NCBI GenBank assembly: GCA_963707025.1
Contig: CAVPOM010000018.1
Span: 320,001-384,000, forward strand
Reading direction: 5' to 3'
DNA: 64,000 nt
From: an uncultured Verrucomicrobiae bacterium
Lineage (GTDB): Bacteria > Verrucomicrobiota > Verrucomicrobiia > Limisphaerales > Palsa-1400
The position numbers were made by a program, and so were the translations under genes. The notes under the pieces were generated by a model that worked only from the letters and a program-made list of their open reading frames with translations, did no database searches and was not told the origin of the DNA. The stretch's first letter is position 1. Every line of letters begins with the position of its first letter. Positions 570 to 6,021 of the stretch are shown here, in pieces.

Positions 570-1493
570 ATGAAATTCTTTCAAATCGCAAAGCGAACGG
601 TTCTTTTTCTGGTCGTGAACATCCTGGTGATGCTCACGCTGGGCATCCTTTTGAGTCTTTTCGGCGTGCAACAGCGTTTGGGCAACGCCAATTTCACCAC
701 CCTCCTCATCGTCTGCTGCGTGGTGGGCATGGGCGGCGCGTTTATTTCCCTCCTCCTCTCCCGGTTCCTGGCCAAAATGATGCAGGGCGTGCGGGTGGTG
801 GATCCCAACACGACCGACCGCAACGAGCAATGGCTGGTGCAGACCGTGTACCATCTGGCCCGGGCCGCCCACCTTTCCGCCATGCCGGAAGTCGGCATTT
901 ACCCGTCGCCCGAAATCAACGCCTTTGCCACCGGCCCGTCGGAGTCGCAGGCGCTGGTGACCGTTTCCTCCGGCCTGCTCCACACCATGCAGCCGGCCGA
1001 AATCGAAGGAGTGCTGGGGCACGAGATGACGCACATCGCCAACGGCGACATGGTGACGATGACGTTGATTCAAGGCGTGGTCAACACCATCGCCATGTTC
1101 ATGGGCTGGGTGCTGGCCATCCTGCTTTCCCAAAATTCCCGCGGCAATGACCGCCGCGGCGGGGGCAGTTGGTTCATGCAATACATGTTGCAGCAGCTTT
1201 TCCAGAGTGTGTTCATGGTGTTGGGGTCTTTGGTGGTGGCGAAGTTCTCGCGCTGGCGTGAATTCCGGGCCGACGCCGGCGGGGCGCGTCTGGCCGGCCG
1301 CGACCACATGCTCTCGGCGCTGCGGCGGCTGAAACTCATCCACGAAGAGGGCGCCGATCACGCCGGCCCGCCCAATCCGGCGCTGCAAGCCCTGCAAATC
1401 TCCGGCAAGAGCGGCGGATTGATGGCCCTGCTGGCCGACCATCCCCCCATTGAAGAACGCATCGCCCGGCTGGAGCGGCCGGTCATCGGATAA
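570..1493 (+). CDS. htpX: Protease HtpX (M48 zinc metalloprotease)
   Basis: INAFATG, GHEMTHIANGDMVTMTL (HExxH), FSRWREFRADAG and HPPIEERI motifs; N-terminal TM helices. Confidence 0.93.
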   Translation: MKFFQIAKRTVLFLVVNILVMLTLGILLSLFGVQQRLGNANFTTLLIVCCVVGMGGAFISLLLSRFLAKMMQGVRVVDPNTTDRNEQWLVQTVYHLARAAHLSAMPEVGIYPSPEINAFATGPSESQALVTVSSGLLHTMQPAEIEGVLGHEMTHIANGDMVTMTLIQGVVNTIAMFMGWVLAILLSQNSRGNDRRGGGSWFMQYMLQQLFQSVFMVLGSLVVAKFSRWREFRADAGGARLAGRDHMLSALRRLKLIHEEGADHAGPPNPALQALQISGKSGGLMALLADHPPIEERIARLERPVIG

Positions 1494-1516: not shown

Positions 1517-1537
1517 CCAGTCCTGCGCCACGCCTTT
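1517..1537 (-). repeat. Degenerate possible third copy of the ftsZ 3' end
   Basis: Minus strand reads AAA GGC GTG GCG CAG GAC TGG (KGVAQDW) versus AAA GGC GTG GCG CTG AAC TGA in the 2165-2209 copy; 18 of 21 nt match. Confidence 0.4.
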
Positions 1538-1644
1538 TGATGTCACGAATGATTCGGGCAGGTTGATGCCATTTAAGGATTTTTAAACGGGAGAAAATGG
1601 CGTTTGCAACTTGCCCGGCGTGGGTTTTTGTGGATAATTATCCC

Positions 1645-1836
1645 ATGAGCACTCAGGAAATGCTGCTGGCGGAAATCAAGAACCAGCCTGAACCGGTGCT
1701 GCGCGAGCTCTGGCACTACTTGAGATATCTCACCCGGCAGCGGGAGGAGGAGAGGTGGGCCGATATGCTGCCAACGCGTGAAGTGGAACAGGAAGTATTG
1801 GACATCCTCGACGGCCATGAATCCGCGCCACGGTGA
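1645..1836 (+). CDS. Putative antitoxin (DUF2281-like) of a MazF-type TA pair
   Basis: 63-aa ORF MSTQEMLLAEIKNQPEPVLRELWHYLRYL overlapping the toxin start; GATAAT 6 nt before the ATG suggests a leaderless transcript. Confidence 0.7.
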   Translation: MSTQEMLLAEIKNQPEPVLRELWHYLRYLTRQREEERWADMLPTREVEQEVLDILDGHESAPR

Positions 1837-2134
1837 AGTCTGGTTGGTGGACATGGGACTGGCGGGGAAGACCCGCCCTGCGGTAGTGCTGCTAGCTGAC
1901 CACCTGAACACCCCGCGCTCGCTTATTATTCATATTCCAATCACGCGGCAGAATCGTGGCAGCGAACTGGAAGTGCCGCTGGGCCATTTGCCTTTTCTCG
2001 ACCCTGAGTCTGTGGCCAACACCCAGGGCGTTGGGGCTCTTCCTTCGATTCGATTTGAAAAACGCCTCGGCGTCTTGCCGGCGGCGGACTTAAAAGCCAT
2101 AAAAACCGCGCTCATCAAAGCCTGCGCATTATAG
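1817..2134 (+). CDS. PemK/MazF-family endoribonuclease toxin
   Basis: MNPRHGEVWLVDMGLAGKTRPAVVL...IPIT...KRLGVL: RG(E/D)VW, K.RP.VV and P(I/L)T signatures. Confidence 0.88.
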   Translation: MNPRHGEVWLVDMGLAGKTRPAVVLLADHLNTPRSLIIHIPITRQNRGSELEVPLGHLPFLDPESVANTQGVGALPSIRFEKRLGVLPAADLKAIKTALIKACAL

Positions 2135-2164
2135 AATTCCTGGATCGGCCTCCTGGAATCCCGG

Positions 2165-2209
2165 TCAGTTCAGCGCCACGCCTTTGCGGAGGCTGGTCGG
2201 CTGATCAAG
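2165..2209 (-). repeat. Displaced, recoded copy of the last 14 codons plus stop of ftsZ
   Basis: Encodes LDQPTSLRKGVALN* versus the current FtsZ end LDLPTYIRKGVALN*; ungapped, 11 of 14 aa identical, many with different synonymous codons. Confidence 0.82.
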
Positions 2210-2248
2210 TAGCTTGCGTTTGCGGCAGATTCAAGGTAGAGGATAACC

Positions 2249-2470
2249 ATGAGCGTAACCGGAAAAGTCAAGAATGGCGTGGTCGTGCTCCCGGCGGGAA
2301 CCAAGTTGCCGGAAGGCGCGGATGTAAAGATAGAAACGCTTGACCTTGCTCCCAAGGATGATCCATTCCTTGCTGCCGTGCTCAAAACGTCCAAACCGCG
2401 TCCCCACTGGCCCAAGGACTACGTGCTCAACCACGGCCACCACGTCAGCGGAGAACCCAAGAAACCGTGA
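2249..2470 (+). CDS. Antitoxin-like protein (AF2212/DUF104-like, usually partnered with a PIN toxin)
   Basis: MSVTGKVKNGVVVLPAGTKLPEGADVKI...PKDYVLNHGHHVSGEPKK; G.V.NGV.V...LPEG N-terminus and a D...NH.H..G.PK-type C-terminus. Confidence 0.68.
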   Translation: MSVTGKVKNGVVVLPAGTKLPEGADVKIETLDLAPKDDPFLAAVLKTSKPRPHWPKDYVLNHGHHVSGEPKKP

Positions 2471-2514
2471 GTTTCGAGCAGGAGGGCTTCACCGCTTTGC
2501 GAAAATCAGTTTAA
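2467..2514 (+). pseudogene. Internally deleted PIN/VapC toxin remnant
   Basis: GTG overlapping the antitoxin stop (GTGA), followed by FEQEGFTALRK, resembling the HFEQAGF.AL C-terminus of this PIN toxin type. Confidence 0.55.
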
Positions 2515-3846
2515 AGCGACGCCCTTGCGAATGTAGGTGGGCAGATCCAAATCCTCGCCGTGGCGGATGGTCGGCTCGCTTTTGTCGAAACGGCCTTTGA
2601 AAACTATTTCCAACGGCAGTTCCTTCTGCATGCGGGAGTTTTTGCGGCGGGCCTGCCCGGTTTGACGGGTGTAAAGCTGCTCCTTCTTTTCGTTGGACAA
2701 CTCCGGCGGAGGCGCGACGCAACGGGACGCAGGACGCGCCGTGGCCGACGGGTCGAGGAATTGCAGAGCGGCGGCGTCGGCCTTGCCCGGGGCTTCCGCC
2801 GGCGCGCCCGCCGGGGCGGAGGCGCGGGCGGACCAGGGCGCCGGTTCGGCGGGGCGGCGCCTGGAGGCAATGAGCATCACCGAGAGACGCCCGGTGAACG
2901 CCTCGTCAATGGCGGCCCCGAAAATCAGATGGGCGTTTTCACACTGGCGCTGGAGCGGCTCCATAATCTTGTTGACTTCGCTCATGGTCAAATCCGGGCC
3001 GCCCGCCAGGCTGACCAGGACGGCGTCGGATTCATTGAGGACCTGGCCGCCGTCCAGGAGGGGATGGGCCAGGAGCTTTTCCAGGATTTGTTCGCTGCGT
3101 TTCTCGCCGCCGGCCTCGGCCGTGGCAAAGGAACTGGCGACATGACGGCCGCGGGTGACCGAACACAGATCGGCGAAATCCACATTGATCAACCCGGTCT
3201 GGGTGAGCAGACGCCAGATGCCCCGCAGACCCTCGGCCATGAGGGTGTGGCCGATTTTAAAGGTCTCCAGGACGCTGGTTTTTTCATCCAGCAGCTTGAA
3301 TAGTTTCTGGTTGGGCAGGCAGATGACGGCGTCGGCGGCCGCTTTGAGCTGCTCCAACCCGGCCTCCGCCTGGCCCTGGCGGCGGCCGCCTTCGAAGTCG
3401 AAGGGGAGGATGGCCAGGGCCAGAACCAGCGCGCCGCCTTCGCGGGCCACGCGGGCCAGGACCGGAGCGGCGCCCGTGCCGGTGCCGCCCCCCAGGCCGG
3501 CGAGGATGAAAATAATGTCCGCCCCCGCGCAGAAGGAAGCCAGCCGCGCCGCATCGTCCTCGGCGGCGGCGCGGCCCTGTTCGGGATCCCCGCCGGTGCC
3601 CAGTCCGCGGGTGCGCTGCTGGCCGAGCACCCATTTGTCCGGCAGGGGCGAAGCGGCCAGGGCCTGGGCATCGGTGTTGAAGAGCAGAAAATCAACGCAG
3701 TCCAACTTGCTTTGGGCGATGAAGCCGGCGGCGTTGCAACCCGCGCCGCCGACGCCGCACACTTTGATGCAGATTTTCTTCTTGAGGGCGGCCTGGTCCG
3801 CTTTTTCCACGGACGCGCCGGGGGTGCTGGCAAAGGGGGTGGTCAT
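2506..3846 (-). CDS. ftsZ: Cell division protein FtsZ
   Basis: GVGGAGCNA, NTDAQAL, GLGGGTGTG, INVDFADL; C-terminal LDLPTYIR peptide. Confidence 0.97.
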   Translation of the reverse strand: MTTPFASTPGASVEKADQAALKKKICIKVCGVGGAGCNAAGFIAQSKLDCVDFLLFNTDAQALAASPLPDKWVLGQQRTRGLGTGGDPEQGRAAAEDDAARLASFCAGADIIFILAGLGGGTGTGAAPVLARVAREGGALVLALAILPFDFEGGRRQGQAEAGLEQLKAAADAVICLPNQKLFKLLDEKTSVLETFKIGHTLMAEGLRGIWRLLTQTGLINVDFADLCSVTRGRHVASSFATAEAGGEKRSEQILEKLLAHPLLDGGQVLNESDAVLVSLAGGPDLTMSEVNKIMEPLQRQCENAHLIFGAAIDEAFTGRLSVMLIASRRRPAEPAPWSARASAPAGAPAEAPGKADAAALQFLDPSATARPASRCVAPPPELSNEKKEQLYTRQTGQARRKNSRMQKELPLEIVFKGRFDKSEPTIRHGEDLDLPTYIRKGVALN

Positions 3847-5066: not shown

Positions 5067-6021
5067 TTTTCCTTTTCAGTTTATTAGGTTTGACAAATTG
5101 GTGGAGCAGCGGAGGCAGGCTGTTGCTGGCCACCCAGCGCACCGGCAGGTGGTTGGAGATGGAAATGTCCAGGCTGGCGATGGCTTTGCCCCTGGCCTGG
5201 CCGTAGTTGTAAATTTCCCGCCAGCGCCGCAACTGCACATCGAATTGGTCGAGGGAAAAAGTGATGCGCGCCCCCTGGCTGGTCGTCGCCTCCAGAATTT
5301 CCGGCGAGGCCACATTGATGCTCTGCAACTCCGCCATCCCGGCCATGGGCGAGCGGTCCAGCGCCGTGAGCAGGCGCAGGGCGGCCAGAACCTGGGGTGA
5401 TTCGGCGGCATGGCCGGGGTTCAAATCCTTGGGCGGCACGCCGGTCAGCGTGGGCAGCAGCGTGTTGGTCGGGGCGGGCGTCAGGCGCCAGGCCGCATCC
5501 AGCGGCTGCATCACCACGCCCGTCTCATCAAAATCATTGGTCAGGGCATTGAACCCGCCGCCGCGGCGCGGTTGCAGAGTAATCGCCTGGGCCATCGGCT
5601 GGCGCTCGGCCACCACGATCCGCAGCGTGCCCGGCAGCACACGCTCGACGGAGACGCCGGCGATGGGGGAATACATTTCCAGGTCGCGCTTGACCCGCAT
5701 CAAATCCAGCGACAACAAATTCTGCCCGGGCTGGACGGTGGCCCAGCGCCGGATGACCCCCGGCGCAATCACCCCGTCGGTGCGGACTTCGACCCGCTGG
5801 ATGGCGAAGGCGGGATTGTCGTACACGGCGTCGGCCAGCAACCACTGCCCGCCGCGCCAGAACAGCAGGGCGAACAAGGCCAGGGCGATGACCCCGGCCA
5901 GCCCTGTCCCGGCCGCCCGCCAGCGCGCCACGCGCATCTGCCGCGTGCGCAACTTCACGTCGAGCACGAACTGGCGCTCGCCGGAACGGCGGTTGCGATT
6001 GCGTTGGAGCCAGCGGATCAT
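5059..6021 (-). CDS. ftsQ: Cell division protein FtsQ/DivIB
   Basis: Single TM helix, POTRA-like region, VERVLPGTLRIVVAERQP; lies between ddl and ftsA. Confidence 0.88.
   Translation of the reverse strand: MIRWLQRNRNRRSGERQFVLDVKLRTRQMRVARWRAAGTGLAGVIALALFALLFWRGGQWLLADAVYDNPAFAIQRVEVRTDGVIAPGVIRRWATVQPGQNLLSLDLMRVKRDLEMYSPIAGVSVERVLPGTLRIVVAERQPMAQAITLQPRRGGGFNALTNDFDETGVVMQPLDAAWRLTPAPTNTLLPTLTGVPPKDLNPGHAAESPQVLAALRLLTALDRSPMAGMAELQSINVASPEILEATTSQGARITFSLDQFDVQLRRWREIYNYGQARGKAIASLDISISNHLPVRWVASNSLPPLLHQFVKPNKLKRKNV

Follow-up and report, generated by a model that had tools for sequence, protein, structure and literature searches.

Stacked toxin-antitoxin operons bordered by displaced copies of the ftsZ tail in an uncultured Verrucomicrobiae bacterium

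Introduction

Some integrative elements enter a protein gene at its 3' end and bring a substitute for the part they displace; examples are e14 and phage 21 at icd in Escherichia coli and the accretion of integrative and conjugative elements (ICEs) and cis-mobilizable elements (CIMEs) at fda in Streptococcus thermophilus. Cassettes with toxin-antitoxin (TA) operons are common in chromosomal integrons, and chromosomal TA operons have mostly been assumed to travel as passengers of other mobile elements. Units of restriction-modification (RM) genes are said to enter genomes by insertion with long target duplication, which Nobusato et al. reportedly described in 2000. Here, we describe two TA units that are stacked behind ftsZ, with copies of the ftsZ tail as their borders, in a 64,000-nt stretch of DNA from an uncultured Verrucomicrobiae bacterium (GenBank assembly GCA_963707025.1, contig CAVPOM010000018.1, positions 320,001 to 384,000 of the forward strand). 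This whole stretch is called the window, and positions are counted from its first letter.

In Furuta, Abe and Kobayashi 2010 (PMC2853133), insertion with long target duplication of RM units is characterized by repeats of more than 30 bp, inserts of less than 20 kb with a complete system, no other mobility genes, and an empty site in a related genome to which one repeat copy can be aligned. The same paper reports 46-bp repeats that overlap 15 and 2 bp of Haemophilus influenzae genes (3' ends); for RM units, it suggests a connection with DNA breakage and a life cycle that makes use of the repeats. The available part of a review (PMC3874152) gives long target duplication for RM only. A full-text literature search, including the accessible part of PMC2654758, yielded no paper on such insertion for TA operons, which is no proof of absence.

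The ftsZ locus resembles long target duplication of RM units in that a small addiction-type unit, without transposase or integrase, lies between direct repeats of the local target that vary in length. It differs in its cargo of type II TA operons (MazF and PIN-domain RNases), in its target, the C-terminal peptide of the essential FtsZ, in the apparent stacking of two events, and in that most repeats end at a stop codon. With the elements at icd and fda, it shares an intact gene, an insert, and a displaced pseudo-tail, and tandem accretion likewise gives several tail copies. However, those elements encode or rely on a site-specific integrase and have fixed att cores, whereas here no integrase is near and the insert is a single operon. 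As in integron cassette arrays, small cassettes, most of them with a single operon, follow one another at one site, and the newest lies closest to the point of entry. IntI, attI, and attC, which mark those arrays, are missing here; the borders directly copy the coding end of a host gene, and no cassette-end structure is shared. The best reading, in our view, is that long target duplication, known for RM units, here also involves TA operons and the end of an essential gene. The original prediction, made from the sequence alone, was that successive cassettes had integrated into the conserved C-terminal codons of ftsZ, each supplying a replacement 3' end from another lineage, in an integron-like array.

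Results and discussion

Displaced copies of the ftsZ tail

Below, G000 is the genome holding the window, G001 to G004 are related genomes, L numbers are fetched loci, and C numbers are contigs of G000. In the window, ftsZ ends in LDLPTYIRKGVALN*, and a second copy of its tail, copy 2, begins 296 nt downstream on the same strand with its stop codon in register (LDQPTSLRKGVALN*, 2209-2165). Both sequences are present as the original prediction had quoted them. When the FtsZ tail was searched by tblastn against the whole 6.96-Mb genome, 2209-2168 came second to the gene itself, with an E value of 0.003 versus 0.27 for the next match. The BLOSUM62 score of copy 2 was 55; the maximum among 2000 dinucleotide-preserving shuffles of the 2.5 kb downstream was 35, so that none of the 2000 reached it. 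Equally good matches in shuffled DNA, which had been named as grounds for rejection, were thus not seen. Copy 2 differs from the live tail of the window at 13 of 45 nt and matches the live tail of G001 at 26 of 27 nt in its 3' part and at about 12 of 19 in its 5' part. We firmly regard copy 2 as a true copy of the ftsZ tail.

A third and shorter copy, copy 3, is identical to copy 2 at 18 of 21 nt, 13 of them in one uninterrupted core, and this 13-mer is unique to the two sites in the 7-Mb genome. A repeat scan of the region independently recovered the same pair. Among 1000 shuffles, the 18/21 match was reached by 2 and the 13-nt exact match by 4. Copy 3 is probably a real tail copy, with a weaker case than copy 2. 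Of the three tails originally proposed, the displaced 45-nt copy therefore stands and the outermost one is probable. Copy 3 is absent from G003, where 7 nt stand in for 103 nt.

Two TA units between the copies

The outer interval, between copies 2 and 3, holds a complete antitoxin and MazF pair (Pfam PemK 2.9e-12). The antitoxin gene (1645-1836) and the start of mazF overlap by 20 nt; of the 80 loci retrieved with MazF, 36 have an antitoxin gene ahead of the MazF relative. A PemK-fold toxin behind a small overlapping antitoxin gene is what defines a MazEF/PemIK-type module, and the outer pair shows this arrangement. The detectable repeat of the outer unit is 21 nt, which falls short of the 30-bp rule of Furuta et al. 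2010.

The inner interval holds a gene for a 73-aa protein, small73, which matched no family in Pfam and NCBIfam. Its relatives form 329 protein clusters, none of them named, at 40-95% identity; small73 was found in 13 of the 31 genomes of the family, with identities that do not track kinship. We examined 64 other small73 loci, 12 from genomes and 52 of the 54 metagenome loci (L032-L122). In 37 of these, a full PIN-domain gene (PIN 2.5e-8) comes directly after small73, usually with overlapping stop and start; 7 have a partial VapC match, at 13 the query gave no match, and the other 7 are cut off too early to tell. Because a full PIN gene so often follows directly, small73 is the predicted antitoxin of a VapC-type toxin. 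An ftsZ-like tail was carried with small73 at none of 12 other small73 loci.

In the window, the place of the toxin gene is taken by 48 nt from 2467, GTG AGT / TTC GAG CAG GAG GGC TTC ACC GCT TTG CGA AAA / TCA GTT TAA. These are VapC codons 1-2, the last 11 codons (28 of 33 nt identical to the gene at L032), and SV*. The final two codons and stop are the antisense of ftsZ ...TTA AAC TGA, with TAA lying antisense within GCT TTA; 34 nt separate the small73 end from the ftsZ end. As judged from these codons, the inner toxin gene has been lost by an in-frame deletion that left a 16-codon stump. The inner unit therefore holds no intact PIN-domain toxin gene, which a VapBC-type module would have. 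The original prediction of one antitoxin-toxin module per interval holds for the outer interval, with its complete pair; in the inner one (2209-2506), it holds for the antitoxin and not for the toxin.

The edges of the inner insert are tight. On one side, copy 2 adjoins the promoter region of small73, which is conserved in the family, with 3 nt between; on the other, the last VapC sense codon adjoins the ftsZ stop. With a conserved promoter at one edge and the last VapC codon at the other, the inner insert is one bare operon between 45-nt tail copies. Intact relatives of this operon span about 650 nt from promoter to vapC stop. In repeat, insert, and lack of a mobility gene, the inner unit fits the description in PMC2853133, with a 45-nt repeat, an insert of 296 nt now, and no recombinase nearby.

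The retained vapC 3' end, CACCGCTTTGCG (2490-2501), is similar to the ftsZ tail core read antisense, CACGCCTTTGCG (2177-2188, 2518-2529). This likeness may reflect microhomology at the insertion site, or chance.

The locus in relatives

A search of 41 genomes gave FtsZ in 39, and the tail ...PTYIRRGV.LN* is kept in all 30 ftsZ loci fetched. A second tail within 1.5 kb of ftsZ occurred at none of the 29 other loci (two with shorter flanks), which leaves the window locus alone, 1 of 30. Variable cassettes bounded by tail copies, which the original prediction had expected in the ftsZ intervals of relatives, were thus absent from all 29. Downstream of ftsZ, nearly every genome has different DNA; 48 of the 59 downstream open reading frames (ORFs), from 28 loci, were scanned, the shortest ORFs and those of G003 being left out.

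Two relatives carry traces of the inner unit. In G003 (FtsZ 91% identical), the live tail GCT TTA AAC TGA and the next 34 nt are the same as in the window, and the order is tail, 34 nt, 9 nt, mazF and antitoxin, 7 nt, htpX; window positions 2150-2471 and 1494-1597 are missing. Contigs with exactly both G003 joints were present in a public peat run. We considered G003 as an empty site. However, its 34 + 9 nt correspond to the final 15 codons of VapC (ADRHFEQAAFTALLK, 41 of 45 nt to the L032 vapC) followed by SV*, and this retention makes G003 a secondary deletion and rules out an empty site. A single deletion in G003 has removed copy 2, small73, and most of vapC. The same TA genes without tail copies would have spoken against the original prediction; the MazF pair of G003 presents this state, which here reflects the secondary deletion. 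The second relative is L112, a metagenome contig (FtsZ 84% identical) on which small73, cut by the contig end, is followed by the first ~26 VapC codons, RLIRKSV*, and the ftsZ tail.

Together with the stump of G000 (VS+FEQEGFTALRK+SV*), three different VapC stumps abut the ftsZ stop. An FtsZ nucleotide tree places G000, G003, and L112 in one clade (support 86/93) and sets G001 and G002, which are without the insert, apart. Since different stumps of one toxin lie at one place within this clade, the simplest reading is that one insertion took place in its common ancestor and that each of the three lineages later deleted the toxin independently. Such a course resembles the known decay of type II TA operons to orphan antitoxins, in that the toxin would be lost first, here three times independently, and antitoxin and promoter kept. 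It differs in that every lineage retains the final toxin codons, apparently since they abut or overlap the essential ftsZ stop region.

That the arrangement arose by chance similarity or as an assembly artefact is very improbable. The window does come from a metagenome-assembled genome, and no public run holds its form well (best share of sampled words, 0.21). However, the shuffles speak against chance, and a copy 2 that differs from the live tail at so many positions is not a collapsed or chimeric repeat. Furthermore, a 151-nt contig from a public run, possibly the window's own source sample, equals 2409-2559 without a difference, and the adjacency of VapC stump and ftsZ recurs in the separate G003 and L112 assemblies. 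The mis-assembly that had been raised as a refuting case is argued against by the last three of these points. The parts of the locus are listed in Table 1; ftsA and ftsQ come after ftsZ in the gene order of the window.

Table 1. Features at the ftsZ 3' end (positions in the window)
Feature	Position	Strand	Basis or remark
htpX (M48 protease)	570..1493	+	Pfam Peptidase_M48 1.9e-34; 95% identity in G003; convergent on ftsZ; outer border of the insertion zone
Copy 3, presumed oldest, decayed ftsZ tail end (KGVAQDW)	1517..1537	-	18/21 nt to copy 2
Outer-unit antitoxin, DUF2281-like	1645..1836	+	Weak Pfam DUF2281 match, E 0.012, below cut-off; start possibly earlier, 1597
Outer-unit toxin MazF/PemK, intact	1817..2134	+	Pfam PemK_toxin 2.9e-12; 94% identity in G003
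30-nt spacer with imperfect 9-bp hairpin, mazF stop to copy 2	2135..2164	.	Read from sequence
Copy 2, displaced last 14 codons and stop of ftsZ	2165..2209	-	tblastn, shuffles, comparison with G001 tail
Putative small73 promoter/operator region, conserved	2213..2248	+	CTTGCnTTTGCGG..GATTCAnGGTA common to most other family loci
small73, predicted 73-aa inner-unit antitoxin, now orphan	2249..2470	+	Full PIN gene directly after relatives
Putative VapC (PIN) toxin gene stump, 48 nt	2467..2514	+	28/33 nt to 3' end of L032 vapC
Live ftsZ tail, last 14 codons and stop	2506..2550	-	Tail kept in all 30 loci fetched
ftsZ	2506..3846	-	Pfam Tubulin 1.1e-37, FtsZ_C 5e-15

Codons and origin of the live tail

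The penultimate Leu codon of ftsZ is TTA in G000 and G003 and CTA in L112; it is CTG in copy 2, G001, and G002. TTA or CTA stands there in 3 of 27 other relatives. On the VapC strand, TTA or CTA reads TAA or TAG, two codons past the last VapC residue. The original prediction took the atypical GCT/TTA as a foreign sign. The TTA is no such sign, as TTA or CTA gives an antisense stop that closes the VapC frame in all three carriers; GCT in the live tail is limited to G000 and G003. We infer that a synonymous change in ftsZ, CTG to CTA or TTA, gave the abutting toxin gene its stop. The hexamer TAAAGC of the live tail was also considered as coming from the VapC unit's own stop region (TAAAGCGG after vapC in L032 and L072), and this was rejected: the match is near-chance, and L112 has TAGCGC.

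We then compared the inferred ancestral live tail with that of the outgroup G001. About 4 of 45 positions differ, no more than in the gene overall (about 14% over its last 140 nt), in a test that rests on 45 nt and has low power. The genus-typical RKGVALN is common to all copies. A replacement tail from another lineage, as originally proposed, is therefore not borne out by the divergence. In this respect the locus also departs from elements of the e14/icd type, since its live tail shows no foreign sign in that same low-power comparison.

Repeats at TA operons elsewhere

We asked how often such repeats flank related operons. Among 80 loci with MazF relatives from species-representative genomes, the 36 with the antitoxin-MazF pair included 35 with a testable flank. 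Direct repeats flank the operon in 11 of these 35 (26-363 nt, 88-100% identity, at least 44 bits), every one with a different sequence. Controls gave 3 of 87 for random 600-nt windows in ftsZ loci (all at most 30 bits), 1 of 35 for mismatched flanks, and 1 of 35 for random windows in the same locus. Inverted repeats of at least 28 bits flanked none of the 35 operons. The inserts measure 534-714 nt, and no conserved termini were found among the repeat-flanked MazF inserts. The repeats at L166, L174, and L184 share one motif, and some MazF-flanking repeats may belong to dispersed repeat families. Flanking repeats were found at 2 of 31 small73-VapC loci, L100 (69 nt at 90%) and L105 (at least 118 nt at 91%, over the 5' part of a gene). 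Because the repeats of the MazF family differ at every locus, new targets would have to be duplicated de novo in any case.

A genome-wide search of gene ends had been proposed along with the original prediction. The last 15 codons of 5082 crude ORFs of G000 were compared with the 3 kb downstream, tandem paralogues were filtered, and cargo was assigned by Pfam; the scan required the tail to be present, not that the repeat stop at the tail end. Tail-only duplications with intervening cargo remained at six other loci of G000.

In the first, VapB-VapC lies behind a gene ending ...YGDRNLVCSCQA, which we take to be glycine dehydrogenase (gcvP-like), with a 49-nt tail repeat at 92% (C11 52212-55000, L044). 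The order is gcvP-like gene, remnant of a helix-turn-helix (HTH) antitoxin gene, VapB-VapC, and 49-nt tail copy. At L053 in G003, the HTH gene is intact, there is no tail copy, different genes follow the gcvP-like gene, and the outer flank is on another contig. In the second, MNT-HepT stands at the stop of an LPG-synthase-family gene with a 110-nt repeat at 85% (C6 150487-151609, L047). At the same gene and stop codon in G003 (L123:3051-4224) is a different two-gene unit with 259-nt tail repeats, whose second gene has a weak PemK match (E 0.012, below cut-off). This gene end looks like a site with exchangeable cargo.

Three further loci carry an N6_N4 methylase and a 201-aa gene of no family (75-nt repeat, 95%; C7 287281-290500, L045), an XcyI-type endonuclease and methylase (53-nt repeat, 83%; C6 354300-359552, L049), and a Peptidase_U49 gene behind an Eco57I-type gene (56-nt repeat, 84%). 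The gcvP-like and C7 methylase cases were considered as clean insertions and set aside as rearranged sites, since their outer flanks are on other contigs in G003. The last locus has a 2.2-kb insert behind thiD between 86-nt tail repeats at 88% (C12 360-445 and 2619-2704, L046), which carries a phosphoesterase-family gene and three small ORFs. Here G002, G003, and G004 have clean empty sites followed by a tRNA gene, and the DNA beyond the outer copy is still the native one.

Mode of insertion

We consider it probable, with some reservation, that two successive TA insertions occurred behind ftsZ without a recombinase and with long target duplication. Two type II TA operons would have entered in turn directly behind the ftsZ stop, between the convergent ftsZ and htpX, and each insertion would have copied the ftsZ end, at least 21 nt in the first event and 45 nt in the second. 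We infer the order of events as follows. The first insert would be the DUF2281-like antitoxin and MazF, leaving copy 3 beside htpX. The second would be small73 and its PIN/VapC toxin, inserted in the common ancestor of G000, G003, and L112 and leaving copy 2 beside mazF. VapC would then have run convergently into the ftsZ stop, the change of the Leu codon would have supplied its antisense stop, and the toxin gene would later have been deleted independently in all three lineages, so that the window kept the antitoxin alone. Host recombination or replication (illegitimate joining or template switching) is the most likely agent, and the survivors would be only those events that rebuilt the essential ftsZ. 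With the ftsZ end duplicated at each insertion, a complete ftsZ would stay next to the insert and the presumably dead copy would be displaced outward. The age-ordered stack of the original prediction is upheld in this form, with two TA units, displaced tail copies as borders, and the younger unit nearest ftsZ.

Several observations weigh against this account. No clean empty ftsZ site was found: in G001 and G002 the tail is single, but the DNA beyond it is unrelated. The only htpX/ftsZ-tail junction is a low-depth metagenome contig of 239 nt (window 1493/2161), with 30 nt on one side, in which the htpX stop is followed by 5 other nt and then ftsZ-tail-like sequence; it may be a candidate for the ancestral empty htpX-ftsZ site. 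The L112 contig ends before the expected position of copy 2, and copy 3 is short and was chosen after looking. Since MazF and VapC are RNases, the double-strand-break rationale for RM units does not carry over. Copy 2 has decayed unevenly, with 8 of 9 changes from a G001-like tail in its first 19 nt (p about 0.006, hand computation), which a single in situ duplication followed by neutral decay does not predict. Finally, the repeat ends at most 2 nt from the stop codon in 8 of 10 tail duplications examined. These eight comprise two at ftsZ, two at the LPG-synthase-family gene (one per genome), and one each at thiD, the gcvP-like gene, the Eco57I-type gene, and a gene at L160 with a presumably MoxR-like tail. 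Random staggered breaks do not explain such ends, and a tail borne by the cassette would.

In that alternative, which we hold to be unlikely yet worth weighing, no integrase is needed either. The TA unit would loop out between tail copies, and the circle, made up of the cargo and one hybrid tail, would re-enter the conserved ftsZ codons through homologous recombination by host RecA; or linear DNA from a relative, anchored in ftsZ, would be joined illegitimately at its other end. The incoming DNA would then supply part of the live tail, in line with the original prediction. Repeats would then stop at the stop codon, where homology between donor and recipient ends, and the pristine 3' 26 nt of copy 2 beside its decayed 5' 19 nt, as well as the survival of an identical 13-nt core in copies 2 and 3, would be explained. 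The exchange of cargo at the LPG-synthase-family stop codon, MNT-HepT in G000 for a different two-gene unit in G003, fits as well, and Furuta et al. (PMC2853133) hypothesize such a life cycle for RM units. However, the ftsZ-linked unit is confined to one clade, consistent with vertical descent, and the live tail is without excess divergence. The 11 MazF loci, all with different repeats, would need de novo target duplication anyway. A core of 26-45 nt is also at the lower limit for recombination driven by RecA, which counts against re-entry.

A system like that of integrons or CIMEs, with a recombinase encoded elsewhere, a core site in the ftsZ tail codons, and cassettes that bring a replacement 3' end, is improbable. 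It would account for the stacked cassettes, the tail-copy borders, the shared CGCAAAGGCGTGGC core, and the repeats that end at the stop codon, and the genome does encode tyrosine recombinases: a whole-genome search with PF00589 gave 22 matches. None of the 22 lies on the 753-kb contig C18 that holds the window, so the absence of an integrase from the window, as first noted, extends to tyrosine recombinases on the entire contig. No attC-like borders or conserved cassette ends were seen; inverted repeats in 1480-2560 amount to four pairs of 10-12 nt, none at both borders, in a search made with no dedicated attC model. Furthermore, the different sequence at each repeat-flanked locus would demand many specificities, cassettes with tail copies are missing at ftsZ in all 29 relatives, and an inner insert of exactly one operon hardly looks like what the trimming of a larger element would leave. 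The integron-like character once proposed is thus not supported by the recombinase and attC searches or by the same TA families elsewhere, whose differing local repeats reveal no common site.

The preferred account remains two insertions with long target duplication, and two TA families thereby show a repeat signature so far documented for RM units. Its presence in about a third of the sampled MazF loci suggests a general, enzyme-independent invasion of genomes by addiction modules. At ftsZ, the codons for the essential C-terminal peptide of a core division gene were hit, and they would have survived through duplication of the tail. The locus would thus be a dated series: insertion, a synonymous codon change that gives an antisense stop, and loss of the toxin on three separate occasions. 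Short displaced gene tails beside small operons may serve annotation as scars that mark and order insertions. More tentatively, bare type II TA operons and RM units in these Verrucomicrobiota could be autonomous minimal mobile units. Such units would have no recombinase of their own, enter at gene boundaries (often the stop codon), copy tens to hundreds of bases of the target, stack or exchange at gene ends, and possibly pass through a cycle of looping out and re-entry. If this is true, there would be integron-like arrays without an integron.

Other repeats in the genome

Two further kinds of repeat were observed in G000. At C6 91478-92800 is a tandem duplication of the clpP-clpX junction, where a 115-aa ORF has two ClpX-like zinc-finger N-termini and a ClpP tail copy (EIPGLTDGKTNAIMS*) at its end. 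G000 and its genus relatives also contain dozens of copies of short dispersed repeat families (50-200 nt), with sites at L045:600-682, L046:3398-3513, L046:122-320, and L049:106-320 and 5151-5254.

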